Assembly (NCBI GenBank): GCA_015680685.1
Contig: MNCI01000312.1
Location: forward strand, 1 to 64,000
Source: Gnetum montanum
Taxonomy: Eukaryota > Plantae > Gnetophyta
Reading direction: 5' to 3'
Length of the DNA: 64,000 bases
The stretch's first letter is position 1. Each line of letters opens with the position of its first letter. The translations under genes and the position numbers were made by a program. Below are positions 27,224 through 64,000 of this stretch, in pieces. Under the pieces are notes generated by a model. That model worked only from the letters and a program-made list of their open reading frames with translations. It made no database searches and was not told where the DNA came from.

Positions 27224-27228
27224 GTCAT

Positions 27229-33150: not shown

Positions 33151-33159
33151 AATTTTGTG

Positions 33160-33397: not shown

Positions 33398-33984
33398 CTA
33401 CAAAAATAAACCAAAAGAATTTCAAGTGGCACCTATTTTAATGAAGTTAGGGTTCACTACACCTCACCCAACTACACTCTCCACTGGGCATTTGGTGTAG
33501 AGCATAGTTTCAGGTTGGTGGATCATTAAATGACCTCAGGAGGGTATATAGATGGTGTTTTACCATGGTAACTTGTCATTTTTTCCATTTCATCATGATG
33601 TTGGAAGTGTAGTCTTGTTGCTACTTCTGCCATCACTGTCAATGGAGAGTGTAGTTAGAAAAAATATGACACACTGGAGTGGACATCTTCACCCAAGGTT
33701 GGTGAACATTACAGAGGGAGAGAAAGTGTTAAGCCTTCTACTGTAGGTGTGTGGAGGAGAGGAGGCTGTTGGTGTCAACTAGGTACATTGACTATGCTCT
33801 TCCCATTTTTCTATTTTGTATTTGTTCTTATGATTTTTGGAAGGCTTGAGAGTGTAGTCCCATGGTGTTGCCTTGTGTGCCCTACTACGATAGTGGCCGC
33901 CACAGTTGCATGCCATTTGGGATGTGGTGTGATGATTGGGAGGAGTTGGTGGTAGGGAGTTACTATGTGGGAGGGTTTTGCTAG

Positions 33985-35258: not shown

Positions 35259-35961
35259 GAAATTGGCGCTAGAAGGAGGGCCTGACTACTTAAAACTTAC
35301 TGTGCTTCAGAACTCTCAGTGTCTACGCTATTGAGTATACGTCATCCTTGTCCACAGAACTCCTAGTGTCTACGCTGTTGACTATAAGTTGACCCTATTT
35401 GCAAAATCCCTAGCGTCTACGCTGCCAAATATACATCGCACACACGCCACGCTGTAGACTTTGTCTACGCTGAACACAGAACTCTATTTACACTGCTGAC
35501 ATATATGCTACACACTCTATGCCATAGACTCGTTTACGCTACTGACATATACGCAGCACACTCTACGCCGTAGACTCGTCTACGCTGCTGTTTACTTTAC
35601 GCTGCACACTCTACGCCATAGACTCATCTACGCTACTGCTAAGTTTACGCTGCACTCTCTATGCTGTAGGCTCTGTCTATGTTGTACGCTGACTCTGTCT
35701 ACGTCGTTCAGTACACGCTACACGCTCTACGCCATAGATTCCGTCTGCGCTGCTTAGCATATACGTTGTACGCTCTACGCTGTAGATTCTCTACGCTGCC
35801 ACTATATGTTGTATACCTATACACTGTCATTGTACGCTGGTCATTGAAGCCTATACGCTAAGACCCAGTTTATATGCTGTACGCCACGAATGTAGGTTTA
35901 TGCCGTACTAGGTATACCAGTTGCATATCCCTTCACTGTGTTGTATTCTCAACCGTTCATC

Positions 35962-38900
35962 ATGAACACCGCAAACTCCACCGCTACAACCACATCGGTC
36001 ACGGACCGTGTAGCCAGCATGGTCGTTCAACATCCCGTGGTACAAGCCATAGTGGGGCGCTACCGGTCTCTTAGATTGCAAGGGAGAAGCCCATCGTCTA
36101 ACATCATAACTCAAGACCAGTACAGTTTTATATGCGTGAAAATACAAGTCGGCCTAGCTATGGACCGAGCCGAAATGGAAGTTAAGAGGCAATACAAACT
36201 TTTCTGTAGGGGAGGACAAGAGTTCATTCCTTCCTCATACGATATCATCCCCCTTCCAGAGCCTTACTCTAAGCTCATCACACAACTCCTCCTGCAAAGG
36301 AGCCAGTCTCTAGATCAGCCTGTAGTAAATCCTCAACTGGAAGAGGAGGATGACTTCGCAGCCCAATCTAAGCATGAAGATTCGTATCATACTCTTAGTC
36401 CACAAACCTATGTCAACTCGTTGTTTCATCTAGCCATAGGGGAAATTACATCCCTTCAACCATTTAGATTCACCCAAACACAAATACCTTAACCAGAATC
36501 ATTCGCAGTTGTTCATATTCCTCCTGCAATCGACCCGCAACTCAATACACTCCCTCTTGCTATTCTCCCTGTGGCAACTGTAGCCCCATCCTCGCAAGTA
36601 CAACCCCCCCCAAAATAATGTAGGAGAAACCTTCCTACCTCGAGTGATCGAGATGCCACATGTGATACCGGCATCTACGTCCACTCATTATATCCCCCGG
36701 ATCCAAACTCACGGAGCCCCTTTCACCGCTGTAGCCCAACAAGTCCAGGGGGTTCCTACACAAAACATGATCAGGCAATGGGCAGCAATTGGTGCTCAAT
36801 CACATCAACCCCCTCACTATAAAATACCACTTCACACAATTCCATTGGCCAACATCCCTCAAGGACAACCACAAAAACAACAACCCCTTACTTATAATGT
36901 GCCACCCCTAGTACCAACCGCTATAAATATCCCGCAAGTATAGCCCCCAACTACACAACTTTCCGCCCCCAACTACACAACTTTCCGCCTTCGAACCCAC
37001 TGCCCAACAATCTAACATGTATACCGTACAACATCCCAAAGCTGCTATCTCACCTAGCGCCCAGGATTAGGCTGATGCCAAAAAATTAATGAAGGAGCTA
37101 ACTGATGAGGTCAAACGCCTCAAAACCAACCCCGACAGAGAACTGAAGGTAGTAGACTTCTATCACGATGACCCTATCAGCTCTTCGGTTCTACCCCTAA
37201 CATTACCCAAGGGTGTATCTTTGCCTACGCTGACCAAATACACAGGGGAAATAGACCCCAACGCTCACCTCATAACATTTAAATTAGAGTGTGCACTACT
37301 TCAGGCATGGCCACATGCCATTCTACGAGTGTTCCCCATGTCTCTCGCTGGGAGAGCACTTGATTGGTATCGGGCCTTGCCACGTAACTCGATATCTTCT
37401 TTGGAAGATTTGTTGCACCAATTTGTCACCATGTTCAAGTATAACTTGAAACCCGAAGCAACGCTAGATAGCCTCATACAGGTCAAGCAAGCACCCCTTG
37501 AACCTGTCCAGAAATTCATCCAGCGATGGAGTGCTGCTCTTAATGAGCTCCATGAGCCAATCCCAGAGACGTATCTCCTTACCATTCTAAAAGGGGCTGT
37601 CAACAATTTTGTGAAATCCAAGCTATACTATCTCAATGCGTGCACTCTGAGTCAAGCATTTGTACAAATTAAGAATATAGAGGAGGTAGCACAAAACAAC
37701 CATGATCCCACATATTTAGCATTTAAGAATTAACACAGTAAAAAAGACAAAGAAAAAGTTAAAATAATGATAGCAGCAGTATCAGAAACACAACAAGCAA
37801 ATATGGGACAACAAAGAAAACTGCCTATGGCCCCTACTAATTACACCTAACCTACTGCTGCGACCGCACCAAAATCATCCTCATCGCAGAACCCAACACT
37901 GAACCGTACGAGAAACTTCGAGAGGAAAGAACCCTCTCAATACACACCACTACCCATGAAACCATCGCAGTTGTTCGACCAACTCCTGAAGGCTGGATTA
38001 ATGAAACACAAATAGTTGTCCCCTGCAGCCATCCAAAGGCATGATCGGTTCTGTCAACTAGTTTAGAACCCAAGCCTAGCGATGCCAAATGAGCCCCTAG
38101 TACTAAAAGGCTTTATAATGGACCGCTTCTGCGATTATCACCAACGTAATGGACATGGCATGGATTACTGTTTCACCCTAAAGCAAGACATCCAACGAAT
38201 GATCGATGGAGGTCAAATCACTTTTGATGAGGCCAACCTGGTCCAACCACAAAACCAGGCCATGGGTGTGTACAAAGACCCTCTAAATACTAAAGAGGCA
38301 CCATACGTCATTAACACGATCTACCTTGATAATGAACCTGAAACACCTAGCATTAACACCGTCTACTCCAACCATGACCAGAAAATGCCTAACAAACCAT
38401 TTGTAGTGCGCATTCCTCCCACTATACAAACATCATTACCTCAGTCATCATATTCACCGTAGAAGCCTTATGTTGTCCGAGTACCCCCCGCCGTAGCAGC
38501 TTCTAACACCCCGACACGCAAAAAACCATACGTGGTGCGCGTACATCCAACGGTACTACCGTAAACATACCAACACCTTCTATTTGGCCTGCCCCCTACG
38601 TAGTCCGAGTACCACCAGCCGTCACAATAGCGGAGGTACAACCTCTAGCTAGGCCAACTCCCTACGTCGTTAGGACACCCGAACGTCCTAGTGATCACCA
38701 ATCCTCTATTTTGCAAACACACAATAAACCCAGCCCTTATGTCATCAAGGTGCCCAGCCGGCCTGGCACTCAACCGCATACAACCGTCCAACCACAACCT
38801 CGCCTGACTCCATACGTAGTACGAATCCCAAGGTAACCTGAGGTCCCAAAAAAAATCGCACCCTTGCGCCACACACGAGAACGCTTAGTGGACAAGCTTA

Positions 38901-40181
38901 CACGCGAACGCTTGGAGAAGGAGCGCCAACGACTAGCCTTAGGCCCTCCCAAACCTACCCCACTAAATGTAGTACCCATGACATCACCTAACAATAAACT
39001 GAATAGAGGCCATGAGGGTGAATCATCCATAAAACATGATACGTCTAAATCAACGATTTCGGGAAAAAATGATAAACTAATGATGCACGAAATAAAACTG
39101 TTGGGCCCAATGGACCAAGTCACTGCCGACAAACATACGTCCAACAGTAGAGACCTAGCAACAACCCTAACACAAGTCACGCAAGCACTCAAGCAAAAAA
39201 ATACTTCATTAAGTTTATATGACCTAGTGCTGACATCTCAAACCCATCGCGAAGCTTTAGTGCACATGTTAACATCTATCCCGGTAAGCGAGGACTTGCC
39301 TCCAAATGAACCTTTTTCATGCGATAATGTACTCCCCTTAGGGGTCAGCTTCCAAGCCATTAAGTTTTCATGATGACAACATCAAAGTGGATCAAAAAAT
39401 GGGAGAGGTAACAACAGCCCCTATGTTCATAACAATACGAATAAACCAATTCAAGATACATAGGGTCCATGTAGATGATGGAGTTGCCACAAACATAGTA
39501 CTATATCCCATCGTCGAACAACTAGGGCTTACAGAGCTAATCAGACCAACCGCCACCACATGCTTGAAATCATTTAGCGGGTTGCGCGTGATAGTCAAAG
39601 GCACCATGACTTTAGACTTCATAGCAGGGGATCAATTCCCCACATCTGTCGACTTTGTGGTAATCGATGAAATGCCAGGGTTCAAACTAATACTAGGAAG
39701 GCCCTGGCTAGCCCACCTGAAAGCAGTCTCATCCCCGATACACCAAGAAATTCACCTGCCTTATGAAGGTGGCGAAATCATCATACATGGGGAGGCTGTT
39801 ACACCCATCATCTCCTCGTACATAGACACAGACCAAGGCTCAGAGGTTAAGCTTGAAGAGCCTAGACAACACGACATAAAGGAACAACAACTAGTAGGCG
39901 ATAATCCTTTAAACACAGAAGAAAACCCACCTAAAATAGAAATACCTGAGCCTGACATTGTACATACGCAGTCTCACTTAGAAACCACAACTGACACAGA
40001 AACTATAATACATGCAGAAGCGCAAGAAAACACTAACGCAAGAAAAATTCCATCAGACGTCCCTTGGGCTGAATTACCATTCAACGTGATCAGCGAAGGG
40101 GACGCTGAATACAGAATCATACCCACTAACGCATCGCCTAATGTCAAAATGAGAAAAATCAAAAAATTACTAAACCAATAA
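35962..40181 (+). pseudogene. E2 gag-protease (stops and frameshifts)
   Basis: Collinear with E1 gag-PR: KYTGEIDPNAHL, FCDYHQRNGHGMDYC, VHVDDGVATNI and LILGRPWL. Confidence 0.9.
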
Positions 40182-40184
40182 ACT

Positions 40185-40420
40185 ACAAACTGTCCGAAAT
40201 GACGTTAAACTACAACAAGTCCAAAAAGACACTAAACTACATTCCAAGTCCGGAACGACGTTAAACTATCATGTCCGCAACAACATAAAACTAGCCATGA
40301 TCAGAAATGGTCGGTCAACCAAGAAATCCACCCATGTCATTCGAAATGTCCCTTGCTTACGCTGGGGCCTGAAATGGCCTTAAACTACGCATATGGCCCC
40401 AAATAATGGCCTTAAACTAG
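40185..40420 (+). repeat. E2 TAAACT-core repeats, left flank of the cassette
   Basis: GTCCGAAATGACGTTAAACTA and ATGGCCTTAAACTA units. Confidence 0.8.
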
Positions 40421-40778
40421 ATCATCCACTTATACTTTGTCTTTCTCCCAAATTCTGGCTCACTATTCAAATTTACGCTTGCATTGTCATGTTGTCAATA
40501 ACAATTTTCGCAATTATCTTTCGTTTATCATAACACTCCTACTCATAAGTACATTCGTGCACTACACTTAAACCACAAAAACAAACCAAAACATTTTGCA
40601 TTGCCATGTCGTGTTTACAATTAAACTCAAAATCAACAAAAAGTTTTTTTATACATATACATGTAATGATGTACAATTACAAGAGTTAACTGATTTTATT
40701 CATCTGTTCAATATAACTTGAAATTTTCAATTTACAATCCCCGTATAAATTTGAGTCAGCATAATTTTACAACAAAAG

Positions 40779-43700
40779 CTAAACATCAGGGACAGGAGGA
40801 TCATCCCCTTTGGACCCGTTGGCATCATGGACCCCCGCTCCACTGGGGCTAGCTTCTTGGACATCATCATCACCTTGATCCTGGAGATGCAAAATAAACA
40901 ATCAACATAAGGACAAAAGGAAAAACTTTCAAACATTATTTAGTGAACGAATTTCATAATAACAAAATGCTTACCGTAGGGGATCCCCCTAAACCGAATT
41001 CCAGTTGGCGAAGGATTTCCTCTTCTGAGACACTAGTCCAATCGGTCCCATCAAGACCTAGGTCGACATCTACCAAGGCCTTCCCCTTGTCAATAGCTGA
41101 CCAGTTGGGATGCTTTAAATGGAATTCACCCTAGTAGGGGATTCCATCTCAATAGTTGTATTTTGAGCAAAGGTATCAAACGCAGAGCACAGACCCAGAC
41201 CCTCTACAAACATTTCTAGCTGACGCTTCTCAATGAATACTTCTTTCAATGATTTCTTATAATGGTGCTTGTGCTTCCTCTCATCCTGACCCCACTTACG
41301 CACCTTGGAAGAAAAAGCCTTCCAATCTTGTCATTTAAGGTTCAATAGATCTACCTGGGCCTTGCGCTCTGCTAGTTTCTGGGTTAGTGACGCGTGGTGA
41401 TTGAGTAGGTTCCAGTATCTAGTATACGTGACCTCGGAAGTCCGCCAAGAGCGATCACCACTTAGTTTAGCAGAGGCGAACTCATACCGAGCCTTGAAAT
41501 CGTCATGCTCAACTGACAACTCGAAAACTTCCTTCTCCTTTGCTTGAACTTGCAACCACAACTGCTCGATGGAACGCCTACAAGTCCAAAGCGATTTGGC
41601 GTTTTGTACAATACCTTCTGTCACCTTGTCATAAAATGGCCTTGGTACCTTCTTGACTTCTAGGGATAGTGTAGGAAAACTCTCAATGCTAACTATCTTA
41701 GATGGATCCCACCTCATTTTGGCACCTACGCACACGAAAAGAACAAACGCTAAAATGACAAAAATGGGGTGTGAAACTCTAAAGCTTCAAAAAACTTGAA
41801 ACATTTGTACCTATTTCAGGGTGGGCTTCCTGAATACGTTCAACAACCTCCTCAGTGATACCAGCCACAAAATCCATTTTACTTGGCATTTCGGTCCAAG
41901 TAAATGGTCCATGAGTATGGGATGGAGTAACCTCTGCGGTCCTTTCAGGGGGAACCGTTTTCATGGGCACATCCAGCCGCAGCATTCTGGTTTCACTACC
42001 TTCGTCTGGAAGCGATGAAAACATAAAAGTAAAAAATCATAAAATAACAACTCAAAAAGTGACATAATAAAATAAAAGAAAACATACCGTGTTCTTTGTC
42101 TCCTTCTGGGTTTGGAGGGTCACCAAGGTCCAACCTTTCCTTGAGAAAGCTACTGAACATCTCATCGACACCACCCTGGTCATCGACTATTTTAGTCTCC
42201 GTGGTGTTTTCCCGTAGCTCCTCCGTCTCCTCCACCTGATCCTTGCCGACCTCTTCCTCCTCAGTCATTAACTCCTTGGTAGCTTTCTCCTCTTCAATGA
42301 TAGTCTCTAATTCCTGCCTCCTCACTTCTCGAGTCAAGTCTGAAGGCATCAGTGGCATGTAAGCAGTCAAAATAAAAATTATAAATAAGACGAAAATCAT
42401 AAAGCAATAAGTGTACTGAGTTTACTTACCCTGGATAGGCATCTTGAACCAGATGCGCTTCACCCATGGCTCGTCCACATTTGAGGCCTCCTCGGTTGAA
42501 CGTTCATGCTTCGAGAGCTTCGACTTGGCCTTACCAATGGTTTCTTTGATGACCCATTCTGCCCTCTTGGTAGTGTAAGGCACATCGTTTGGTTCCAATC
42601 CTACACTGTCACATGTATGGATTGAGGTACCAGATGAACCTCCCGTCGTGATGGACACTGACTCATCAATCCCCTTAGGAGCATCCTGGGATTCAGCTGT
42701 TTCAAACAAATGGTTGATCCATGGGCGGGATAATTGACCTCGATCCCGTAGGACATATTTATTGTCCACGCGAACCACTTGAAACTTAGCTAAGCGGTGA
42801 ATATAGCTGACAAATAATGCAATGGTAAAGTGGAATTTTGCCTTGACATTCGAGTGCAATCGCACTATCTCCTTGTGAAGGCTCGACAACAAAAATTGGG
42901 CCTAGTTATAACACATCCCGGTTTCTAAGACGGTTCGCATAATATGCACAGCTTCAACACCAAGACTCCGCACATGGGAAAGGAATTTAGGGAATACCCG
43001 TGCCCTAAATAGGGGATATAATTGATTAACTTCCTCAACCTTTGACTTCCCCTACATAGGGAATCCCTTAGCACCCTTGGTAACACCCAACCAGGCCTCT
43101 AACTCACGTACTAGATGGAGCTCTTTCTGAGCCCTGTCCAAAACTACATTTACACCATCTGCCGGTACACCAAATAGGTTCGAAAAGAATTTGGCTGACA
43201 GATGGAAGACTATCTTAACACCCTTAATCCAGGTGCTGTAGTAAGAGACAGACTTGTCGAATGAATCCACGATCCCGATCATTTCTGCTATCGACACATC
43301 AGGGCTCGGGGTTGTAAAGAGCTCCATAAGGCTGGCATCATTTAAACAATGGACAATGAATGGCAGGGCATGGGTGCGCAACCATTTCTGAGCCTTACTA
43401 ATCTCCCCGAACTTCGTCGAGAGGGTACTCTCAGTTCGTCCTATTGTGATAGGGTCTCCGCTGGGAGGGACATCAACTGTAGATACAATTCGAAACCATC
43501 ACATCAATATAACCCACGACAGTTGAACAAACACGTTAACATATCGAGAAAATATTGTCACTTACCTTCAGTAGTGGACTTAGAGGTGCCACCCAAGTTA
43601 GAGTCATGAGGGAAAATTGGTCCCTTATGCGACCAGTCTTCATGCAACCACCCACGAGCTTTGCATTGTGCGAACGCTCTAGAAAATCATTTGTGAAAAT

Positions 43701-45285
43701 GGACAATATCACCCTTGGTTTGAGCTAACACATCTCCACGAAGGGTGGGACCTGCCATAAAGGTCTCTAGAGTGGTATGAGCTAGGGCAAGCCCATCATC
43801 ATCAACACATGTTCTGTCTTGGTTAACTTGGGGCCTACAAAAGAACGGTTGTCAAAATAGAAGCAAATGCCAAACGATAAAAAAAGAAAAAAAAAAGAAA
43901 CAACAAGCTTAAACGATCTTACCTATCTACCCGGTACACTGTGCCAGGAGGGTTCTAGAATAGCATGTGTGCACACGCAGTTAAAAATAGAGTGTTGTTT
44001 AGATAATAATGCCCTCGCGGAAATAGGGCCCACATGAGCACTAACGGGCGAGTAGACCTGGGCCTGCTAGAGGAACCGTCCTTGATCACAAGCGGCCCCT
44101 CGTCAATGTCTTCCATGAAGATCGTGACACCCTTCAAGGCTCCGGGCAACATAGCCTCAAGCATGCTCTGTGCCACTTATTCACTCAGATGCGACCAGAC
44201 AACTACCTTAAATCTGTCCAAGATGAAGGCAAGGAATTCACACGCCCTTCCCTGAACCACACCCCTTTGTTTTTAATGGTGAGATTAGGGGTAGGTTCAT
44301 CAGCCTCAAGGGGGCCAAACCATGCTAGTACTCCAACTAGCTTAACTACCAGGACAAAAGGCTTAGTGTCCCTACTAGAAACCAAAATGTAATGATAAAT
44401 CAGCCATACATGAAAAGGGGATGAAACAACAAAATTCCATATTGTAGGCCAACACTTAGAAAAATTACAAACTGTTTTCAATCAGCGTATACGCTGTTCA
44501 ACAAACTGTTCACGCTCAGTGTATACGCTATAAAAACTATCAGTGTATACACTATGAAAACTCTCAGCGCACACGCTGCTTGAAAGGAACAAACTGTTCA
44601 CGCTCAGTGTATACGTTGTGAAAATCCTCAGCGTATACGCCGTGAAAACCATCAGCGTATACGCTGTGAAACAATTTATGCTGAACATTGTGCAAATAGT
44701 TTACGCTGAACGATGTGAAAACAATTTACGCTATACGCTATGAAAACAGGTCTACGCTATACCCCGCCTGAAAAGAATACACTGTTTACGCTTAGCGTAT
44801 ACGCTATGAAAATCATCGGCGTAGACGCCGAGAAAACCATTAGCGTATATGCTATGAAAACAGTTAGCGTACATGATGATAAAATCGTCTATGCTTCATA
44901 CTGATAAAATCGTTTACGCTATGTACTAGTAAAATTGTTTATGCTACGCACTGACAAAACAGTTTACGCTATATACAGTCAAAACCGTCTACGTTGTACG
45001 CTATAGAGACTCTCTACACTGTGAACCTACAGGCCTTCTACGCTAATTATCTATGCCGGGCATATACACCGAAATCCTCTATGCTACCGAGACTATCTAC
45101 CCTACATAACATGTACAGATGAAAATAACTAACAGAGGCAGGATTAGAGCTTACCTGTGTGATGATCCAGGCCATGATGGAACCCTTAGCCTAGGCAGAC
45201 ACTACAGCATGGCCTCGCTTTCCTCCGCGAAAGTTAGATTAGGCCCCTTCCTCCCCTGGCCTTCTACCTCCTTGCCCTTACCCAT
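40779..45285 (-). pseudogene. E2 antisense spliced accessory gene, ~1065 codons: FCP1/NIF-like pseudo-phosphatase, plant transposon accessory domain, acidic linker, coiled coil. Exons 45285-45155, 44371-43923, 43834-43566, 43476-42430, 42339-42088, 42005-41811, 41725-40975, 40880-40779
   Basis: Seven minus-strand GT-AG introns of 783, 88, 89, 90, 82, 85 and 94 bp. Splice phases join the track ORFs in frame, apart from two 1-nt frameshifts (~44250, ~41140) and a few nonsense codons. A homologue with matching introns lies at 53390-56869. An in-frame upstream ATG also exists at 45384. Confidence 0.85.
44480..45060. repeat. TACGCT / CAGCGTATACGCTG motif array in intron 1 of the antisense gene
   Basis: Many copies of the same motif that fills the family A LTR and 5' UTR. 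Confidence 0.8.
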
Positions 45286-45587
45286 TTCGGCGTTCTCTAC
45301 GCTGCAATTGATAGGGTCTACGCTGAGGTCTAAACCGCATGCTGAATTGAATCTTGTACGTTGAGTCTGAGCCTTTACGCTCATGCTGAGTTGGGGCCTC
45401 TACGCTCACGCTTACGCTAAGTTTAAGCCTCTACGCTCACGTTGAGCCTCTACGCCGGAGTTGAAAGTTTACGCTTACGCCGAAGTTGGAGGTTTACACT
45501 GGGGTTTGGTTGTTTATGCTTATACTGAGGTTTACGCTCATGCTCAGTCTCACTTCAAATGCACAATGCTCACAAATGACATCCCCA

Positions 45588-45601
45588 CGCTATATATAGC
45601 G
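45588..45601. promoter_or_regulatory. Palindromic TATA box, putative internal promoter
   Basis: CGCTATATATAGCG is a perfect 14-bp palindrome, ~300 bp upstream of the antisense ATG and ~470 bp upstream of the pol ATG. Confidence 0.5.
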
Positions 45602-45811
45602 CTGAGCCGCACCGTCGCTGCTGCCTTGCATTTTGTTTCTTTTTATTTATTTATTACTCATTTTAATTAAATTTGTTCAAAAATACAAAAAAATAATATA
45701 TATAAAACAAAAAAAATACTACCACATGTTGATTCCCTCGTAAACCAACTTCAGACGTCCACACTGAACATTTTTGCGCAGACTCTCCTGTGCAAATTTA
45801 ACGGTGAACAT

Positions 45812-45950
45812 CTGGCCCGGTATGGCCTTAAACTGCCATGACGGCCCGGTAAGGCCTTAAACTGCCACCTGCGGATCACAGTCGGCTTGGTAAGGCCTTA
45901 AACTGTCACACGCAGCCCATCTTCGGCCTAGTATGGCCTTAAACTACCAT
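45812..45950 (+). repeat. E2 TAAACT-core repeats, right flank of the cassette
   Basis: Four GGCCYGGTAWGGCCTTAAACT-type units. Collinearity with E1 resumes here. Confidence 0.85.
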
Positions 45951-46070
45951 GTGTCCCGGTGTGATAATAAAACACCATCATGCATGTACACACGACTTAT
46001 GCTGCTAGAGAACATGGAACAATACCTGTCAGCTCATTTTGCTCTCTGTTTATTAGCAGGAGCAAGCCTG

Positions 46071-49000
46071 ATGGATTATCAGCATTTATCCGCACCGTTA
46101 ATCATCGGTGGGCCATGTGGAAAGATCGCAAGGGACATCGACATAAATCTCATCCACTTATGTTTATCAACGAATGACGCAGTCATAGCCTCAACACAGC
46201 AAATGCTATATAAGTACAAAGGTACGACAAAGCCCCTTCACATAGAAGCTGAAAAAATCACCGAAGACCCGTTGACCGAAACCCCCATCTCCATGCCCGA
46301 TGGAGAAATTAAAATATTAAAATTAAGTACATTACTACAACCTCAACTTGCCAAATACATAGAGGATGTTCTTAGGGACAACATAAAAGCATTCGCTTGG
46401 TCATACATGGACATTCCCAGATTGGATCCTTGAATCATCCAGCATAATATTATCCTTGATCCAAAATTAAAGCCAGTGAAACAAAAGGCCCAAAAGGTTA
46501 AACCTGAGGTGGCATTGGCAGTTCACGATGAGATCACCAAGCTTTATCAGGCTGGTTTCATTCGGGCTATCGATTACGCTGATTGGGTATCCAACATGGT
46601 CATTGTCCTAAAAAAGAACAAAAGTATTCGCTTATGCATTGACTTCCGAGATCTCAATGTTGCAACCATAAAAGATGATTTTCCCCTACCCAGCATCAAT
46701 CAACTTGTTGACTCGACCTCTGGGCACACCCTATTATGTTTTATATATGGCTTCTCAGGATACAACCAAATACGCATTAACCCGGAGCATCAGCTCCGGA
46801 CTGCCTTTATGACACCATGGGGAACCTTTTGTTACACAATGATGCCCTTTAGTCTCAAGAATGCTGGGGCCACATATCAAAGGGTGATGACATTCATTTT
46901 TAGCGATTACATGCTGCACTTGCTCAATGAATATGTTGATGAGATCGTGGTTAAATCGAAGACATCAAAACAACACGTACAAGACCTTGACTTGGTGCTA
47001 AAACGTTGTTTAAAATATGAACTGAGACTTAACCCAAAGAAATGTGTCTTTGGAGTCAAAACAAGAAAAATGCTTGGATTCATAGCCTCAGAAGCAGGAA
47101 TACGAGTAGACCTTGATAAAGTTAAGGCCATAACAAACTTAAAACCACCTGGCAACCTTACTGAACTTCGAGGTTTACAAGGTGGATTACAGTTCATCAG
47201 ACGTTTCATAGAAAAACTAACAGACAAGTTGAAACCTATGAACCACTTGCTACGCAAGAACGTCCATTTTGAATGGACTCCACAGTGCCAGGAAGCATTT
47301 GATAATATTAAAGCAACACTTGCCTAATTACCCACGGTTTATCCACCTCAAAATGATAAACCATTTTACATCTACCTGGCCACTTTGGATTCGTCAATCA
47401 CGTCCATGCTTTGCCAGAAACAAGATGATGGAACCGAAGTCTCTATCTATTACTTAAGCCATGCATTAGTTGCCCACGAGAAAAGGTATAACAAGGTGGA
47501 GAGGTCATGTTTAGCCCTAGTCTTTTCCTTAAAGAGATGGTGACATTACCTCTTCCATAACCAGGTCAATATAATTTGCAAGGATAATGTGCTCAGAGCC
47601 ATCATAGGAAACATTTACGAGACAAGTCGAATAGCCCGTTGGAAAGCCATGATAGCCAAGTTTGACCTACATTACATAGTGTAATCATCAGTTAAGGGTC
47701 AAGCCATAGCGAATCAAATGACCATGTCACCAACGCACGATCAAGCAACGATAGAGCCAGAATTCCTAGATGAAAATGTAAGTGCAATAGACATAGTACC
47801 CAATGACTACGATGCCATTTTAAAATTTGATGGAGCATCCACCTCTCGAGGGGGAAGTGCTGCCGCTGTCATCACCTATCCCTTCGGGGAGATCAGAAAC
47901 CCTTTGCTTATCGTTTCAACTTTCGTTGTACCAACAACATAACAGAGTACGAAGGTCTCCTTGGAGGTCTCATGGTAGCACTAGCTTCAGACATCACAAG
48001 CCTTGTGGTTAGAGGAGATTCACAACTGGTTTTGAACCAAGTCACAGATATTTATACATGCAAAGCACAACATTTACAACTATACTGTGACTTGGCAAAA
48101 CACTTAATGAGTCGATTCGAAAACATCGATGTGCAACACGTCTCTAGAAATGATAATACTATCACAGATGCATTGGCCACCCTAGCGTTAAATATATCAC
48201 CTGACATGTTCCATAAGCTCCATAATCAGTTGTGCCAAACCAATAACCGATACTCTCGATACATTGCCAATTGCATCTGTTAGTACAACACACGCGATAG
48301 AATGGTATGACGAGATAAAAGAGTACCTTCTACGCGGTGAAACACCGTAACACTTAACGAATGCACTGGTAGGAGACACATTGTGTCGTCGATCCTACGA
48401 AGGCATACTGCTAACATGTGTTGGTAGCGCTGATGGCCAAACCATCATTGAGCAAGTACATGACGGACTATGCGGAGGACACATAGCACCTAAGGCAATG
48501 GCAAAAAAGATAAGACGCTTAGGCTATTATTGGCCACATATGGAGTATGACTATCTATCCAAGACTAAAACATGTAATACCTATCAAAGACATAGTAATC
48601 TGATCCATGTCCCACCAAATGAGTTGCATACGGAGAAAATCACATGGCCCTTTCAAAGGTGGGGGTTGGACCTTATCGGACCAATAACACCCTCATCTTC
48701 CGAAGGGCATAGTTTCATCATAACCGCAACCGAATACTTCACGAAGTGGGTAGAAGCTATTCCCCTTCGAAAGACCACATCTAAACACGTATGCAACTTC
48801 ATTCTTGAGAACATTGTGACCCGTTTTGGCATCCCCATGACCATCATCACTGACAACGTACCGCAATTCAGCAGTGCCGAAACCAAAAATTTCTATGAAA
48901 ATCTGGGGTTCAAAAAATCATTTTCATCCCCTTACTACCCTCAAAGAAATGGGCAAGTAGAGGCCACAAACAAAACCATCATTATAATACTTAAAAATAT

Positions 49001-49502
49001 GCTTACCCAAAGCAAGAAAAGATGGCACGAATAGCTGGTATACGCATTGTGGGCCTATCGTACTACGCATCAGACTTCAACAGGTAAAACACCATATAGT
49101 CTGGTTTATGGTTCAAAAGTTGTTTTACCTTTGGAATTAGAGGTACCATCTTTAATGATCACACTTTCTGGACTCCTCAACGAAGGACAAAAAAATGACC
49201 TGCGCATCATTGACCTGGACTTGGTGGAGGAGGAACACATACGTACACTCGATCAAATTGAATGGTACCAAAAAAAATAATGGTAACGCCATCAGCATGA
49301 CATTCATAAGTGCCTTATCAAAGAAGGCGACCTTGTACTCAGAGCCGTTCGGGAACACCTGGACAAATTTTCAGCCAACTGGGAAGGGCCCTACTTGGTC
49401 ACCAAAGCATATTACAACGGAGCATTCAAGTTAGCTGATATGGAAGGGAATGAGCTCGCAAATCTGACCAATCACTTGTTCTTGAAACCGTTCCATGTCT
49501 GA
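46071..49502 (+). pseudogene. E2 pol: RT-RH-aRH-INT (stops and frameshifts)
   Basis: Collinear with E1 pol: FAWSY, RLCIDFRDLN, YVDE (YVDD mutated), LKFDGAS, GDSQLV, WGLDLIGP and WEGPY. Confidence 0.92.
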
Positions 49503-49524
49503 ACATAGTCAGGTACGTGCGAGT

Positions 49525-49895
49525 CTTGGCATCATGACTATAAACTGATACCACAGCTTGTCTTGGAATCATGACGGTAAACTGATACCACAGCTCGTCC
49601 TGTAATTATGACAGTAAACTGATACCGTAGAACAGTCCTGGAATCATGACTTAAAACTGATACCACATAGTATCTGCAATGACAATAAACTAGCACCCGT
49701 CCGGTACGATAGTAAACTGCCACAGTTGCATTCACCAGACTCCGCTAAGACTATAAACTAGTTTGCCTCTTCATGCTTCGCTAAGACTAGAAACTAGCAA
49801 TGCACCGTCTGTCATGACGCTAAACGGGAAATGTCCAATGGGTCATGACATAAAACTAACCCATGATAGTCATCTATGACTATAAATTGGCAATT
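49525..49895 (+). repeat. E2 3' tandem array
   Basis: ATCATGAC-N3-TAAACTGATACCAC units, as in E1. Confidence 0.85.
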
Positions 49896-50951
49896 TCATC
49901 TCTGGTTACTCAATCGGTGGCTGCATTCAAGCTTCATCAGAATCGCTGCATCACTTGCCAATCGGCCGATCCTAACGCCATTACTGCCATTCACATACAG
50001 TGCCTGAAATCTCATCAGGTGCATTTGTTTCATCAGTTGCTATCCCAGTCTAAGCTTACTCACTCACTCATGGTTTTCTTATCTTCTCAGAGTTGTGTTT
50101 GTAGGATGACGCTCAGAGGTGTTTGTACAAGAATGCACTTCGTCATAAGAAGCAAGGTGAGATGATGTTCACACACGTGGCAAGACTAAATCAAACCATT
50201 CACTAGTCCATCTCCCATTTCATATCCCGCCTATCCTTCAACACCTTATACTTGGTTACATCTCGAACACATCCAGTACAGCCTGAAACATCGAACATAC
50301 CATTGGATATTGCGCCACTCTTAAGAGGTTGCAACCCACCACATGGCACTAGAGCATGAGTACAAGATCAAAACAAAGCTCTTCAAAAAAAAGAAAAGAC
50401 ACTTGGCACTTCCCATACAAGCCCCAGGCAGGAAGGTATTTGTCTTGGAACCAAGTGCTCGTGTCTAAAACAATCAAGAAACATCCTGTTGCATGGCTTT
50501 GGCTCTCCGCCAACAGGCTCCCCCTAAACACTAAACAAGGGCCATGTTCCTCCATAGAATGTAACACATCATCACGTGGCTTTGGTTTTGCCAATAAGGC
50601 CTCTTGGATACTAACCAAGAGTCTTGTTCCACCAAAGGACACACATCTCATGTCTTTATTCCGAGTCTGCTAAACAATGGTTATTGACAAGGATCAGCAT
50701 GACCCGTGTACACATCAGAACATCCCCTTCACCATGCACAACCTTGATTCCTCCCAAATCCCCACAGTTCCCCTCTCCCTATCAAATACAAATTCCATTT
50801 CCCATAATCCCATGTACTACTGAACACGGTGCGAGGATGTCTAGTCAGGTGGCAAAGGACAAAGTCTCTATCGAGTTGCTTGTGGTGTTTTGCACTTATT
50901 TGTCGATGCTTCTCAGGTCGATTCCTCCAAGCGTCAACAAAGAGGGGCCAA

Positions 50952-52219
50952 TGAAACACCATAAAATTCTGAGCTTGGTACTATTCCAACAAGAATCGAG
51001 CCAAGTCATAATGTTCCCCAGCATGACTAAAGCTTGAGGGCCCCATAGACAGCTTCTAGCAGAGTCGAACTCAACGAGGAGCAGTTCCTTGGGACTCGTT
51101 GACGGCCACAACAACATCTGCTATCAAATATGCCAACTTCGAAGCTCAAAGTACTTAGTTTACACTAAGTATGCATTCTCAGTGTATACGCCCAGCCTAT
51201 ACGCCCAACATTCACAGTGTATATGCCCAGCGTATACGCCCCAGATTGCATCCCCAACATATACGCCCAGCATAGACATCCAACGTACATGCCTAATGTG
51301 TACGCTCAGCAGGTACGACTGATGTATATGCCCGGCATGAAATCCCCGAAGACGGCATGGAAACAGCATTGCAGAGCAAAACTTGGTACGAGGAATTGAC
51401 TCATATGAGCAGAGCAACCATCAGTGTATACGCCCAGCATCCACAGTTTATATGCCCAACGTATACGCCCAGCACGCCCAGCGTATACGCCCAGAGCCTA
51501 CGCCCACCAGATATAGCATATACGCCCTGTAGAGGCAGCATGTTGTACACTTGTAAATTTTATTCTTTCACACTCGGTCAACATGCCACATGTCACCCAA
51601 CCCGAGTCAAACGTCTAAACCTGTATAAAAACCCCAATTTTTCATTAGATAGGGGGGCAATTTTGAGCAAACCAGAGAGAAAAACAGAGACGCTAAGAAC
51701 CAAAGCAGAGAACCTTGTACGCTGGACCTCAACCCTGTACGCTGAGCATACAGCCTCCACGTTGTGCCTGCAATTTGAACCAGCACATAGTCATCCCTGC
51801 ATCCACTAGGGCTATTCATCCGCCTTGTGTGAAAGCCACAACTACGTTAGACCGGTGCATTGTAATTCTCGCTTTGCAATAATATTTCTGCATTTTCTTC
51901 CTAAAATATGTTACAATTTTCCATTTATCATTGCATGTTTGCTATTTACGCTCTGGTACGTTTACACTCCGTTTACATTAGTTACATCGTTTACGCCCTG
52001 TTTTACATTAGTTACGCTGTTTACATATAACCCAGCGTATAGCACTTCGGTGTACGTTCGGGCAAATCCTTGCTTGATCTGCGTGCGGACCACTCAAGGT
52101 ACTCTGCTTTCGTTAATTCTAGCTTGCCCTCAAGAGAAGGTAGGGTCTTCTGTGCGTGTTTGATGATCCCTCGGTTCCTGTTTCCTTCCAGCTGAAGATC
52201 GACGATTTCGGACGGTATA
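50952..52219 (+). repeat. E2 3' LTR
   Basis: A direct repeat of 33985-35258, lying between the PPT and the TSD. Confidence 0.95.
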
Positions 52220-53389
52220 GCTAGGCTGTGGGAATTTTGCTAGGTTATCGGGATTTGGCATGTGTGGGGGGGAGGGAGGGGTTAGGACCCTGTGCACATC
52301 ATGCATTGCAATGTGGCTACAGAGGCTAAGGCTGCCATTGCATGCTACTTCGTAGCTATAGGGATCATGTTTGTTATTTTTGTAAGGAGGGGGGCGTAGG
52401 CCCCAGGGAATTTAGGGCCCTGTGGCCATGACTATGCATTTTGTGGTGTGGTTGCGATCCATGCCTAGGTTTTGTTGGGACATGTGTAGAAATGAGGGTG
52501 ACTGTTCCTTCTTCCCTCGTTCCCCCCCATTTTTCTATTCTAGTTGTAGGGGTGTAGGGTTTGGGATTGCACATTGCATATCAACATAGCTGTAGGGGCC
52601 ATGGCCACAATTGCATGCAAGTGCTATAGGATTTTATTTTTTGTGTTTTTTTTTGTTTGGTGTGGCATAGCCACAGGGTCTGGGATCATGCGTGGGCTAC
52701 ACATGGACTAGGGATATGTGTAGGGATTTTGGGTTGTGCAGGGTTATTTGTGGCCATAAAGGATATGATCATTCTTGCATGTCGTAGCATGGTTACTAGG
52801 GGTTGTGGCCATGATCAGCAAAGTTTGCGCATCTATTTTTTTTATTTTTATGTTTTTTGGGTACAATAGTGAAGGTGTGACCTATCAAAATGATGGGGCA
52901 AAGTGGGTTGTTGGGTGCGGTGCTGTGGGAAGACTATGCTCTCCATGGCCATGGGACTACACTCTCCATGTGTGGAGGGTGTAGTTTGCAGGGAAAGTGC
53001 TTGGAAAAATGTATGGTCCAAAGTTAGCCAAATTTTGCAATTTATTTTTTTGGGACTACACCCTCCATGGAGGTAGTTTGGAGTTAGAAAAATTTTGTAG
53101 TTTTTAGACTACACTCTCCATTGAGGCAATCCAGAGTTAGTAAAAATTTTACCAAAATGTTGTTAACCATGCATGATGCTAAACTTGCAAAATGTAGCAT
53201 TAATCCTATAAAAGCATGCTATACCCTAGTGAGTGCTAGGCACGTCAAACAAGTTAAGTGATGTCCTACACTTAAGGGGCACCAAAGTATATTGCCAAAA
53301 TTGCATTTCTGCTAATAATTTATAATGTTTATATCAAACTTTTATATCTATGTGTACTAATACTTTGCCTATTGCCTGTTAATTGCAAG

Positions 53390-56300
53390 GTGCTATTGAA
53401 GCTCATTCTAATAGTGATTGAGGTCATAGGTATCCTCTATTACATGAGTGAACTTGTCCCTAACATGCCTACACTAGATATGTGGGTGGACCATCAAGTG
53501 ATTTGGTTTTAGACAAGGGATCAAGAGTTTCTGGAATACCTACTACAATAGTTCAATGTGATCATGTGGTCACACTTGGTAGTGGAGGTTGTTAGCATCA
53601 TCACCGAGATGTTGCTACCTAGGGCTAAATGGGACATCTTGAAGTGCATCTCATATGAGCTTGTTGATGATGTTAATGGGGTGAGAGGCTCAGGTAGAGA
53701 TCCCAAAGTGCTTATCAGCTATCTAGAGTATGACACATGATAGTGTTTGCTTATCATAATAAGAGAAATACCATTTTTATCACATAGTAGTTGCATACCT
53801 TGTTCCAGAACCCACCTAGAATCTTCCATTGTGTTGGAGGGTAAGTGCTTCTATTGCTCTCACAGTATTTTGTGCTATTTGCCTATATGAAGTTGTTAAC
53901 ATTTCTATGGTCAATGCTAGGTTTAGAGTTGATGAAGACAGCTTGCATGATGATGTGGATGCTTTAGTCTTAACTCGTACTACCTTAGAGGTGTTCTTAT
54001 CTCTCACAAATGTTTGAGCATCCATGCTTGAGTAGGTGGGGCACAATTTGAAGGCTTACATCTCCTAGAATCCAAAGGCATATGAGCGATGTAGGATCAA
54101 TGGTTGGTTGGATGAGGAGTGGGTTGTTGGTGAGATTAACACCAAAGAGGTTTTTATAGCACCATCCCCATCTCACACTTCATTTGTACCACGTACGTAT
54201 CTATGTTTTGGTCCATGTGGTTGCTTGTGTATGCCTTTCAGTTTGCTTCATTTGCATAATGCTAATGTTGTTTTACATTATGTTGCAGGGAAAATCTCCT
54301 TAGCCAAGGTGATAGTGATCACCATAGGCCACATAGAGGCCACCCTCATCATGAAATATGGTAATGTAGAGGATGCGTAACATTGGTTGTGCCAAAAAGT
54401 ACCAGATGCACTAATGGCTTAGCTCATGCATGCTAGGTTAATGAACCTATTCTTAGTCCTTAGCTTGAGTATTTTGGTGTTTGAAATAGTCACCATCATT
54501 GACTCCTTCAGTAGTGATGTCAGGTAGTTTATCACTTGGATGTGCGATGTGATGGAAGTGTTGAACCTCAGTAAGGCCTTCTTCTCAAATCTCTTCGACA
54601 TTCTTGCTGATGGCCTGATGATTATCGATAAGGCCAGCAAGGAGGTGGACCACCATGGGGAGATCAAGGACTGGTTGGAGGCCACTCAATCCCACAAGGG
54701 CATATTGATCAAAGATGTGCTAGTGCCTTAGGTGTGGGGGCTCTACCCTCTATTCCATGCTCGTGCTTTTCCAGAGCTGCTTTCCCATGAAAATATTCTA
54801 GTGGTGGAATAGGCACAGGTGATAAAGGAGGTGCTGCTAGAGGGCACGAGGTTTAACTAGGCTATGTACATAGCCACTGGCTTACGTGTGAAGATTTCTA
54901 GGCTATGATTCAACCTCTAGGTGAGGTCCTATGTCCATTTTGCATTCTTCGCAAGATACCTGCAAAGGTTCGCGGAGCTTTTGGTTATGCAAGATGATGG
55001 ACGATGGGTAGTGTAGGATCATGAGTAGCTATCTAGGCCATGGATCAAGCATATGTTCTCAACCACACGTGCATAGGACCCCCCAGAGGAGATTGATGAT
55101 TCATTATCAGTAATGACCAAGGGTCTTATTGGGAACTTGCATTACTCATGCAATAGTGCAGGTGAGGGTCCCCCAGTTTGCACTGGGGACATGAGTAAGG
55201 CAGATCACTACATAGCTAAGATGGTGGGACCATCCAAGGCCAAGATTAAGAGGTTGAATCCTCCAGAGGAAGCTACCCCTAAGATTAGGAAGCTAAGCAG
55301 GAAAACAATCCAAATAAAGCTACAAAGCTTGCATGTAGATGTTGTAGGTTAGTATGCATAGATTCTTAGATGCCTTAGTTATATTCATGTAAATGTTTCT
55401 TTATTTTTATGTTTTTTTGTTATGCCATATTATTAATTAGCTAATGATGTGCTATGCATACTAATATGATATATGTGTATATGTGTTAATTACAAAAAAA
55501 GAAGAGAGGGCTACATAAGTAGCGACTAAGGTGGTAGCAAAGGAAGCACCTCCTCAAGCTGAGGAGGAGGAGGCTCATAGAGAAGAGCCTCATGAGGTGG
55601 CATAGGCTCTCCAATATTTTGAGAAAGAGGGGTTTGTCCACCCTAATGGGGGTGATTTTTATAGTTTTTTCAATGGTACGTAACTAGGTGAGCCCCCTAC
55701 ACTCACGCCTGAGCACTTGCTAGGTAATCAACTTATACTGCCATCTATCTTCCCTTGTTTTCTTTAGTATATTTAGTTGTTAGGACATATCTTAATTGCA
55801 TCATTTTATTATAGCATTAGATGTTCTTGTAAGTATTCCCATATCTACCTACCACATGGAGTCGTGGGTAGAGATGCCAGATAAATTGGCCTTCATGGAA
55901 GACATTGTTAGAGACATGGTGGACTGCTTGCAACAAGTAGACCCAAAGCTTAGTATGTGTGCAATGTTTTCATTTTATCCTATCATGCTTACTACTTAAA
56001 TGCTTAGTTTTTGGCTAAGATGTTTTAGTTGTTGCATGTCTACAGGTCCTAAGTTGTAGTGGGACCTAAGCAAGGTGGCCAAGGTGGACATCCTACCTGA
56101 CTTTCCTCCTGAAGTTGATCAGGTACCTCATCACATGTACAAGATATTGAAGAAGTGTGCACTTTCCTATGTGAAGGTGTTGTGGGTCTGTAGGTGCTCG
56201 AATGAGAACCTATGAAAATGTGTGCACAAACTCTAGGAGATGGTGACTAGCCATAATGAGAAGATTAAGGATCTTCAATCCAGATATGACTTCATAGTAG

Positions 56301-57040
56301 CTAAATTGTAGGAAGATGACACTTGGTGTATCTCTAAGATTGAGTATGCCAGATATTGGATAGCTCTTAGAGGTAAGAATGAGGTAATGTAGGATCTAAT
56401 AGGGCAATAACTCTAGATGGATTTGCTCATATAGAAGAACCACGATTGGAAGAATTACAGCACAAAGGTTTATCAATGGGGACAAATGCAAAAGAATTAC
56501 AAGCATTAGTACAAGAAAGAGTGTGACATGTACCTATGATGGGATAAGGAGGAGTCTAGAAAATGCTGCTACATTGAGATGTTTCTTGAGGTGACTGGAA
56601 AAAAGTAGGCATATGATTTGTTTGTGTAGAGCAAGGTCATGAGTGACTTTCTTGTGAGATAGATTGTAACCCCCTCTGGAGAGGCCTCTTCTGCTACATT
56701 TTTGATGGAGCTACCAGAATGAACCACTGTGAACAAAAGAAAGACCCTTGAGGGCATTAACTTTGGCTAGGAGGATTGGATGCAATGTTTTGAGGTCAAG
56801 ATCCTTTAATGTTTAGAGGTTGGCCTTGGAAAGTTACCTCTAGAACTCATCGATGCAGGACCCTCTTAGGTTAGTTGGTTTTTATGCTTTTCATGTTTTA
56901 AGTTAGCTCATATAGTGCATGTTTGCTTACTAATTTCACATGTTTGTTAATGGTTGTGGCAAGTACCATGAAATGCTATAGGCCCTTACAATGCAGTAGA
57001 GGAAGGAGAACTTCCACCCTCACTTAGTGCTACTAGTTGA
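53390..57040 (+). pseudogene. E3 copy of the antisense spliced accessory gene (heavily degraded)
   Basis: Peptides match the E2 gene: QEFLEYLLQ*FNVIMWSH, NTIFIT..HTLFQNPP, TTLEVFL, GWLDEEW, FFSNLFDILADG, LSRPWIKHMF, WVEMPDKLAF, WDLSKV and RYDFIVAKL. Introns at 53841-53920 and 54193-54288, further donors near 55348, 55724, 55954 and 56870, and acceptors near 55820 and 56045. Confidence 0.8.
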
Positions 57041-57224
57041 GCATGACTAGTTGTACCTCATGATGAGCTTTTTTTTAATACATTTTTGCCATGTGATGCT
57101 GTTCATGCTATGTATTACTATGCATATTACATTTGCTGGATGATTATTTTCTATGTGTAAAATTTTATGCTTATGTGACAATTTTATTACATTTGCTATG
57201 AGTGTGCAGGTTTGGGCCATTGCG

Positions 57225-57625
57225 AGCCATAGCGGTACTGGGCCATTGAAAGCCACAATAAGTCTATTGTTAGTTCAAAGCCTTGATGGATCCCATGCTA
57301 GTTTAAGGCCATAGTAAGAGGGCCAATGCTAGTTTTTTGGCCATTTCGGGCCATGTTTTGCCAATTTAAGGCCATAGCTAGCCAAGGTGCTAGTTTTAGG
57401 CTGTTCTGGGCCATAGTGATAATAGTAGTTTAGGGCCATTCTAGGCCTCTGTGAAAAAATTAAAAGTGATAGTTTTATGCCATTCCAAATTGTAGGGTTG
57501 CTAGTTTAAGGCCATAGTCAACTGTGTTGATAGTTTAAGGCCATTTTGGACTATGGCGATGGAGATCAAGAGTGGTATTTTAAGGTCATTCCAGGCCATA
57601 GTGTTGCCAGTTTAAGGCCATGGTA
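57225..57625 (-). repeat. E3 ATGGCCTTAAACT repeat array between gag-PR and the antisense gene
   Basis: Repeated AGTTTAAGGCCAT on the + strand. Confidence 0.85.
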
Positions 57626-57924
57626 GGCTGGGTATTGCTATCTCTCTCTTTGTAATTTTTGCTTTTATGGTTTTTATGCATTTTGATGTTTTAAAGTGAT
57701 AACTATAGAAGTGTAAAATAACAAGAAAATGCCTAAACAAAGTAGATGAATGTGAGAACCAAGCAAATAAATGTGTAACCTAAGCAATTAAGCTAAATGC
57801 AAATAACATGCTATGGTGCTAACCTAATGTGACAAAAATTTAATAGAAGTAGAAATTAGGGTATAGGGAACACAAAAGCAAATAGTGGGCAGGCACCTAG
57901 CTTATTTTGGACTAATGGGGTACC

Positions 57925-63826: not shown

Positions 63827-63831
63827 AGGAT

Positions 63832-64000
63832 GACCCTATAAGTCATGTAGTCCCACCTCTAACTCTTTGAATTGGGATCCCACTTTCCCAATTCATCAAA
63901 TACAATAGTGAGGGAGATCCCAATGCACATTTGGTCACATTTAGGTTAGAGTGCCTACTATTGTAAGCATGGTCACATGCCATCACACATGTTTTTGCCA
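63832..64000 (+). pseudogene. E0 gag continuation after the E3 insertion
   Basis: DPISHVVPPLTL*IGIPLSQFIKYNSEGDPNAHLVTFRLECLLL*AWSHAI. Confidence 0.8.

Follow-up and report, generated by a model that had tools for sequence, protein, structure and literature searches.

A long-selected antisense gene with introns in two diverged retrotransposon families of Gnetum montanum

Why do two retrotransposon families with largely different long terminal repeats (LTRs) carry the same gene, interrupted by introns and read against the direction of gag, and what could the gene do for them? This question is raised by a stretch of 64,000 nucleotides from Gnetum montanum (contig MNCI01000312.1, positions 1 to 64,000; hereafter the window), in which the element E2 (family A; 33985-52218, plus strand) is inserted in the element E3 (family B; 63826-29477, minus strand). 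A sequence-only reading of the window had claimed that E3 carries a homologue of the antisense gene of E2, with introns at equivalent codons, and that the gene is an ancestral part of the lineage and not a one-off capture. In the present analysis, E2 and E3 were found to carry one antisense gene of approximately 1,060 codons and eight exons, located directly downstream of gag-protease (gag-PR), and we are highly confident that it is a genuine accessory gene kept by selection for a long time.

One gene in two families

The E2 copy (40779-45285, minus strand, with an AATAAA at 40700) sits between the protease and the reverse transcriptase (RT), inside a 5.9-kb spacer. Its exons 1-4 lie at 45285-45155, 44374-43923, 43834-43566, and 43476-42430, and its exons 5-8 at 42339-42088, 42005-41811, 41725-40975, and 40880-40779, all on the minus strand. 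When the E2 spacer was compared with the window by tblastn, E3 was matched at 53.4-56.8 kb with the blocks in order. The large exon (E2 43450-42440 against E3 54318-55322) was 35% identical over 337 amino acids (E 7e-50), and E2 exon 7 was 33% identical to E3 56009-56623 (E 2e-24). The offsets of four tblastn blocks of the gene agreed within 14 nt over 3.2 kb between the two elements. Moreover, a global protein alignment, for which each copy was translated with X placed at the breaks, scored 1096 compared to -228 ± 24 for 50 shuffles. The homologue was present at the position and in the antisense orientation that had been proposed, and both peptide pairs quoted for it, including LSRPWIKHMF versus LSRPWINHLF, were recovered. 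The LTRs and gag were as divergent as had been described: the best local match between the E2 and E3 LTRs was not significant (E 0.28), and the amino acid identity of gag-PR was 41%.

The E3 copy lies on the plus strand. Its exon 2 (53390-53840), which weakly resembles HAD/FCP1 proteins and lacks the catalytic aspartates, is disrupted by premature stops and by a single frame break at about 53740-53766, and is 35% identical in amino acids to E2 exon 2 over 130 columns. Beyond intron 2 (53841-53920; 80 nt), exon 3 (53921-54192) is 25% identical to its E2 counterpart over 87 columns, with a z of 5.5 when the nucleotide alignment was compared to shuffles. Intron 3 (54193-54288; 96 nt) is followed by exon 4 (54289-55347), the main conserved domain, which belongs to no known family and has 11 in-frame stops versus 37 and 25 in the other frames. 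Next come intron 4 (55348-55494), the end of which is approximate, the acidic linker of exon 5 (55495-55675; start approximate), intron 5 (55676-55820), exon 6 (55821-55952), and intron 6 (55953-56045). Exon 7 (56046-56869), heptad-rich and then basic, is heavily decayed, with 17 in-frame stops versus 18 and 28. Intron 7 and a short last exon occupy 56870-57042, with a weak acceptor near 56964; this last exon is a prediction that has no aligned counterpart in E2. The reading frame served to locate the acceptors of introns 4 and 7, since the sites themselves are damaged or weak.

Introns 2 and 3 of E3 have GT-AG ends and the phases (2 and 1) that had been assigned to them. The phases of the internal introns were equal in the two copies in six of six cases (2,1,1,1,1,0), the chance of which is 3e-4 to 1.4e-3 under general intron phase frequencies of 0.56/0.22/0.22. 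The claim that introns fall at equivalent codons held for a part of them. Introns 2 and 6 fall at exactly the same codons as the E2 introns 43922-43835 and 41810-41726, and intron 3 falls within one codon of the E2 intron 43565-43477 when counted from the nearest anchors, while the global alignment moves this site four columns, beside a gap. In contrast, the donors of introns 4, 5, and 7 are displaced by approximately 5, 17, and 9 codons; all three keep their phase (1, 1, and 0) and lie in poorly conserved linkers. The exon sequences were conserved and the intron sequences were unlike, as had been noted: the z was 3.4-17.4 for exon pairs (n=6) and 0.7-1.8 for intron pairs (n=5, introns 2-6).

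For the E3 gene, 33200-33984 (plus strand) is the candidate region for the promoter, exon 1, and the first part of intron 1, with a TATA-like box at approximately 33545; the E2 gene has such a box at approximately 45598. The rest of E3 intron 1 would lie beyond the E2 insertion, at 52224-53388 (plus strand). Both flanks bear the family-B motif described below, and they are split by E2 with a clean 5-bp target-site duplication (GCTAG), which supports the earlier suggestion that E2 lies in intron 1 of the E3 gene. The exon 1 tentatively placed at 33642-33782 was less certain. Its position is plausible, between the TATA-like box and a T-rich donor (33783) and amid copies of the family motif, but it does not resemble E2 exon 1 (nucleotide z -0.1; best protein E 0.32). 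If the intact AG is taken as the acceptor of E3 intron 1, the phase is 0 versus 2 in E2, and the site equivalent to that of E2 is one base off and damaged. In the same flank, 52250-52955 is low-copy, and a contig of run X1 (organism A) matches it with 3 differences in 706 bases; organism A may hold the locus.

Selection and transcription

Over 891 aligned codons, the two copies of the gene share 34% amino acid identity, the nucleotide identity by codon position was 0.50/0.61/0.31, and 29 of the 114 fourfold sites agree. Since the protein was kept while the silent sites were randomised, purifying selection has acted since a deep split, approximately as deep as that of gag, which bears out the proposed long-term selection on the protein. 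In one and the same test, gag-PR showed 41% amino acid identity and 48 of 151 agreeing fourfold sites, and the gene 36% and 17 of 79. The comparison covers two copies, and E3 is without RT. The view of an ancestral gene, not a one-off capture, gained from this, since the divergence of the gene is of the same order as that of gag-PR, as co-descent predicts; on the other side, E1, the close relative of E2, has no such gene, which is dispensable in cis. From these alignments, vertical descent of the gene with gag is probable.

Both copies in the window are dead. Exons 2-8 of E2 contain 6 premature stops and 2 frame breaks, and the E3 copy contains 37 stops and shows strong CpG loss (0.16 of expected). 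Transcripts were looked for in public RNA runs. In three runs, 225, 248, and 598 reads aligned to the E2 gene, and since they are mostly less than 90% alike, they stem from other copies. Overhanging read ends, which make up the junction evidence (no junction appeared in the automatic junction table), piled up at the donors 41810 (7 + 13 reads) and 40974/40977 (9, 10, and 6 reads). By eye, the ends at 41810 run into exon 7, with 21 of 30 letters compared to 7 of 30 for the intron, and those at 40974/40977 run into exon 8, with 22 of 30 and 21 of 30 letters in two different variants. The read ends continue into the next exon, indicating that introns 6 and 7 are removed from the transcripts of two or more copies of the E2 family. 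None of the other five E2-family junctions was seen in the three runs. That splicing has been kept, as claimed, is shown by these two spliced junctions and by the equal phases.

In 18 of the 19 bins of 40970-44389, the first mates of the stranded-looking run X12 pointed against the gene, which places the E2-family transcripts in antisense to gag; the bias reversed in the bin nearest gag. A matching strand bias was found for the E3 gene in run X13, with 17 of 23 bins in agreement, 1 against, and 5 empty; the X13 peaks at 52588-52925 were rejected as expression because they are poly-T artefacts. In two oligo-dT runs, intron 1 was almost empty and the exon 1 bin had few reads, whereas in a DNA run the depth of the exon 1 bin far exceeded that of intron 1. 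We conclude that the gene is real, old, and under selection, and that it is expressed in the E2 family. As a separate observation, about 100 reads of X12 at 41390-41460 in exon 7 match a short stretch alone, diverge on both sides, and have few start places; they possibly come from a family further removed, or from a fragment that was captured.

Protein, motif, and cassette

The predicted E2 product of approximately 1,060 residues has a phosphatase-like N-terminus, a helical domain in exon 4, an acidic exon 5, and a heptad-rich and then basic exon 7. Exon 4 of either copy had no match in Pfam at E up to 1. No relative of it was found among 1,509 proteins of similar length that share words with it, in the PDB sequences, or by phmmer in 1.84 billion representative proteins, and none of 596 pattern matches in metagenome contigs was confirmed. 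For exon 2, weak matches were obtained to Pfam NIF (positions 45-74, E 0.058) and, with a four-piece profile, to the enzyme ThrH (1rku; residues 75-177, 102 positions, E 0.0085), both of which we take to be HAD-fold proteins. The profile had no relatives among 1,097 longer candidates. The HAD motifs include the catalytic DxDx(T/V) and the motif IV aspartates. In the alignment, both are absent from the two copies, each of which retains the motif II serine; since the aspartates are missing, exon 2 is at most a catalytically dead domain. It resembles FCP1/SCP (NIF) and other HAD phosphatases in these weak matches and in the motif II serine, and differs from them in the lost aspartates. A dead HAD/FCP1-like domain is the assignment that we somewhat favour from these matches. 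The exon 7 profile had one PDB match (E 0.46). Pfam Cmc1 on E3 exon 7 (E 0.004) was taken as chance, being below the cut-off and not seen in E2. Fold models were unusable, with a predicted local distance difference test score (pLDDT) of 35, and of 40 for the HAD-fold test; a fold search with the first returned nothing under E 0.4 and was given no weight.

Each family has its own short motif, of the AGCGTATAC type in family A and of the AGAGCGTAGTC type in family B, with a shared core AGCGTA. The motif arrays fill the LTRs, the 5' untranslated regions, 44375-45810, 33200-33984, and 52224-53388, and avoid the coding parts. The first motif counts were circular, since the patterns were drawn from the counted regions, and they were repeated with 8-mers learned from other elements. 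Ten 8-mers learned from the E1 LTR gave 30 matches in E2 intron 1 (expected 0.5), which correspond to roughly ten sites because overlapping 8-mers inflate matches, and 0 in the three 5' segments of E3. Ten 8-mers learned from the LTR of E0, another family-B element, gave 9, 7, and 12 matches in the 5' segments of E3 (expected 0.1-0.2) and 0 in E2 intron 1. In the coding regions, 0-3 matches were counted. In each family, the LTR motif is thus also dense in the 5' region of the gene itself while coding DNA is free of it, which is a new lead.

In both E2 and E3, the order is gag-PR, a short-repeat block, the 3' end of the gene, the exons, the long intron 1, exon 1, a TATA-like box, and a second short-repeat block, which is followed by pol in E2 and by a 3' remnant in E3. 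A block of the GTTTAAGGCC type lies at 57190-57660 (plus strand), between the 3' end of the E3 gene and gag-PR, and matching blocks lie at 32500-33200, 40160-40440, and 45790-45960. E1 gave no tblastn match to the accessory gene and lacks the whole 5.4-kb cassette. The two blocks that flank the cassette in E2 are joined in E1 near 20500-20980 by a clean junction, and with E3 as the outgroup a single loss in E1 is the simplest account. A common pyrimidine tract, AG, and ATG precede pol in E1 (21060-21100) and E2 (46040-46080), and about 120 codons ahead of the RT region are conserved. The mRNA for pol may be a spliced or a separate one; no sense donor common to the elements was found near the gag-PR stop.

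E2 and E3 belong to a nest of four LTR retrotransposons that lies directly downstream of a host gene for a leucine-rich repeat receptor kinase (6227-10267). E1 (14462-27222, plus strand) and E2 form family A. E0 (plus strand, from approximately 13.6 kb, with the window parts 13600-29460 and 63830-64000) and E3 form family B, with an LTR identity of 76%. E1 sits in the E0 LTR, E3 in the E0 gag, and E2 in E3, so that the nesting has three levels among the two families. The LTR distances are 0.073 for E1, 0.124 for E2, and 0.241 for E3. One primer-binding site, presumably that for tRNA-Arg, is common to the three. Between its LTRs, E2 contains the primer-binding site, gag-PR (35.9-40.2 kb), the accessory gene, and pol (46.0-50 kb). 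E3, with LTRs at 63826-62015 and 31310-29477, consists of gag-PR (61.5-57.9 kb) and the accessory gene; no pol was detected in it by homology search of the window, and 31315-33200 had merely short matches to the post-integrase and pre-LTR regions of E2. The protease motif ends gag in E1, E2, and E3. E1 and E2 share 72% protein identity in gag-PR and 74% in pol, and have the layout gag-PR, stop, spacer, and then RT, RNase H (RH), archaeal RH (aRH), and integrase (INT). The Pfam order was RVT_1, RT_RNaseH, RVT_3, and rve, with RT_RNaseH in E1 only among the scanned open reading frames (ORFs). Judged by these predicted domains, the order is that of the Tat dual-RH type of Ty3/gypsy. The E2 RT (46434-47324) had at most 57% identity among 1,194 matches, the best reaching 55-57% and the named ones being a Ginkgo gene model and Victoria cruziana. 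The divergence suggests an undersampled Tat lineage. Elsewhere in the window, 3286-3687 is a run of 402 N, and the ORFs listed across it are artefacts.

Known systems and rival explanations

The Tat dual-RH order has been described (PMC6317226, PMC10508981), also in ferns and some gymnosperms (PMC10508981), and Tat elements are known to carry extra ORFs in antisense. In lineages III-V, the product is PMD or PMD-coiled-coil, and in lineage VI it is Tr28 (PMC4408406). Such ORFs are placed either downstream of pol, ahead of the 3' LTR, or upstream of gag (PMC7264820, PMC6317226). Those of Grande, RIRE2, and Retand are conserved across copies and species, and the Grande ORF is transcribed from an internal promoter (PMC7264820, PMC11963269). 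The gene described here resembles Grande gene23 and the RIRE2 and Retand TRP28 ORFs in being antisense to gag-pol, conserved, flanked by family-specific tandem repeats, and present in non-autonomous elements as well (PMC7264820, PMC11963269). It differs from the Grande, RIRE2, and Retand ORFs, which follow pol on the side of the 3' LTR and are mostly TRP28: the E2 gene lies between protease and RT, with seven introns and approximately 1,060 codons. Neither TRP28 (PF04195) nor PMD (PF10536) was matched in its product by Pfam. The word 'intron' does not occur in the main text of the Retand survey (PMC11963269). With Ogre and Tat IV-V, the elements share a non-coding spacer between gag-PR and RT-RH-aRH-INT, a 5-bp target duplication, and an extra gene with a heptad-rich end (PMC4408406, PMC6317226). 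The Ogre spacer, however, averages 274 bp, with the extra ORF 5' in sense or 3' in antisense, whereas the 5.9-kb spacer of E2 itself holds the gene.

VANC of the Arabidopsis VANDAL elements is similar in that it is a spliced accessory gene accompanied by a short family-specific motif, repeats of which have accumulated in the non-coding termini, intergenic parts, and introns, that of the gene itself among them (PMC5735166). In contrast, VANDALs are Mutator-like DNA transposons, and binding and demethylation were shown there for VANC (PMC5735166); for the E2/E3 motifs, the one indirect test, on CpG decay, was negative. No homology to VANC was found for exon 4 in protein searches, or for exon 7, which was searched in Pfam and PDB only. 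The brtn gene of Boty, an element of Botrytis, is spliced. It is likewise an antisense extra gene in a Ty3/gypsy element (PMC7264820); unlike the E2/E3 gene it is fungal, small, located between pol and the 3' LTR, and encodes an unrelated protein. By title or opening of the abstract, no paper in the literature covered, which lacked most subscription papers and most supplements, describes a plant element whose protease and RT are separated by a spliced antisense gene. The part of the Neumann 2019 supplements that was searched contained no NIF or HAD term, and the words retrotransposon and LTR do not occur in 10.64898/2026.08.24.746577. Among antisense Tat ORFs, which as such were already known, the gene stands out by its position, its seven introns, its protein of no known family, and its candidate target motif.

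The most likely role of the gene product, in our view, is that of a regulator in trans, specific to its family, by which transcription of the elements would be maintained, a proposal with about an even chance of being right. Introns antisense to the packaged RNA persist by the established logic of retrotransposition, and we infer that those of the gene can persist for this reason: lying in the opposite orientation, they would remain unspliced in genomic RNA and survive reverse transcription. The gene would be driven by its own internal promoter, adjoining the pol-side repeat block. Its protein would bind the family motif, or be recruited there, and oppose silencing. Copies without the gene (E1) or without pol (E3) would complement each other and be served in trans, and the flanking direct repeats would allow loss of the cassette by recombination or template switching, as in E1. 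An action in trans on transcription or chromatin is as credible to us as its opposite, while a strictly VANC-like binding of the motif is possible but doubtful. Equally tentative is the fullest form of the proposal, in which an ancient Tat lineage would have its own sequence-specific anti-silencing system, a retrotransposon counterpart of VANC, made of an eight-exon antisense gene nested in the gag-PR/pol spacer, with a captured, dead domain resembling phosphatases of the RNA polymerase II carboxy-terminal domain, a co-evolving motif, and sharing in trans between complete and incomplete copies.

Several observations weigh against such a regulator. No DNA-binding domain was identified in the gene product. 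The promoter and exon 1 of E2 are an exception to the motif pattern, with 0 E1-derived and 2 family-B matches, a variant of the core being present. The CpGs in the motif decayed like the others, leaving no footprint of protection from methylation: in three LTR pairs with small counts, kept and decayed CpGs in the motif versus elsewhere were 20/9 versus 37/18 in E1, 9/12 versus 23/28 in E2, and 0/4 versus 0/11 in E3 (p 1.0). Family-specific tandem repeats of no known function are common in Retand internal regions (PMC11963269), and it could be a host factor that binds the motif. For the phosphatase-like domain, single exon 2 pieces matched nothing relevant, and the NIF match weakened to E 0.26 with a longer piece. 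The RNA runs were chosen by species label (organism B), possibly not the window's own species; the low identity of the E2-gene reads has been given above, the strand reading assumes the usual library convention, and the X12 depth peak at 41330-41509 rests on few start places. No spliced junction of the E3 family was seen at the low depth of 12, 23, and 186 aligned reads, many of the 186 lying on poly-T. In addition, a finer comparison of the ages of the gene and gag is impossible because synonymous sites are saturated.

The negative CpG test also favours a protein that acts post-transcriptionally, in genomic RNA export or packaging, pol splicing, or nuclear import of the integration complex, as a retroviral accessory protein might; the gene would again be ancestral, and the motif arrays would be host-factor sites or by-products. 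Such a role has been proposed for antisense additional ORFs (PMC7264820), and the gag-PR/pol spacer that houses the gene is a partly spliced intron in Ogre (PMC6317226). It would also suit the acceptor-like site and ATG before pol in E1 and E2. However, no RNA-binding or membrane domain was found in Pfam and sequence-feature scans, no conserved sense donor was found before the gag-PR stop, and the recurrence of each family's LTR motif in intron 1 of the gene would be left unexplained; we regard this role as rather doubtful. The product might instead be a very diverged PMD and coiled-coil extra ORF of Tat elements, relocated and extended by a phosphatase-like domain, which would act as a PMD protein; this is compatible with the regulator in trans. 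Short stretches of exon 4 look PMD-like to us, although this is an impression, and the layout of helical domain, linker, and heptad-rich end agrees. PMD-coiled-coil extra ORFs are typical of Tat lineages III-V, some of them antisense (PMC4408406), PMD proteins of the host counteract silencing by Polycomb and are associated with DNA motifs (10.1101/2024.09.27.615353), and MAIL3 is a PMD-phosphatase fusion (PMC5418596). The missing Pfam and phmmer matches of exon 4 speak against a PMD origin, which we consider unlikely, and the fold model, at its low pLDDT, gave it no help.

The direct repeats that bound the cassette, and the clean junction between its presence in E2 and its absence from E1, would also fit a mobile cassette, old and selected but not inherited with gag, that entered both families separately by recombination at these repeats; E2 might then have gained it rather than E1 lost it. 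This history is quite improbable, as E2 and E3 differ in the gene about as much as they do in gag-PR, the 5' region of each copy bears its own family's motif, and one loss in E1 is the shorter account. Far less probable still is a host or DNA-transposon gene captured once with its introns and carried passively. Eight exons with short AT-rich introns do resemble a nuclear gene, the phosphatase-like domain hints at a host origin, and both window copies are pseudogenes. Passive carriage, however, cannot yield randomised synonymous sites in a protein that is still 34% identical and whose six intron phases are unchanged; expression and splicing were seen for other copies, and no host homologue was found in the protein searches with exons 4 and 2. 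As stated, it is refuted by the codon-position pattern, and capture may still be the origin of the gene.

The role of antisense extra genes in plant retrotransposons is an open question, and a 2020 review calls for a search for spliced antisense transcripts. A large, selected, and expressed protein, a motif that differs between families, and natural copies without the gene or without pol make a direct, family-swapped binding test possible. If the protein does bind the motif, retrotransposons, like some DNA transposons, would carry their own means against host silencing.

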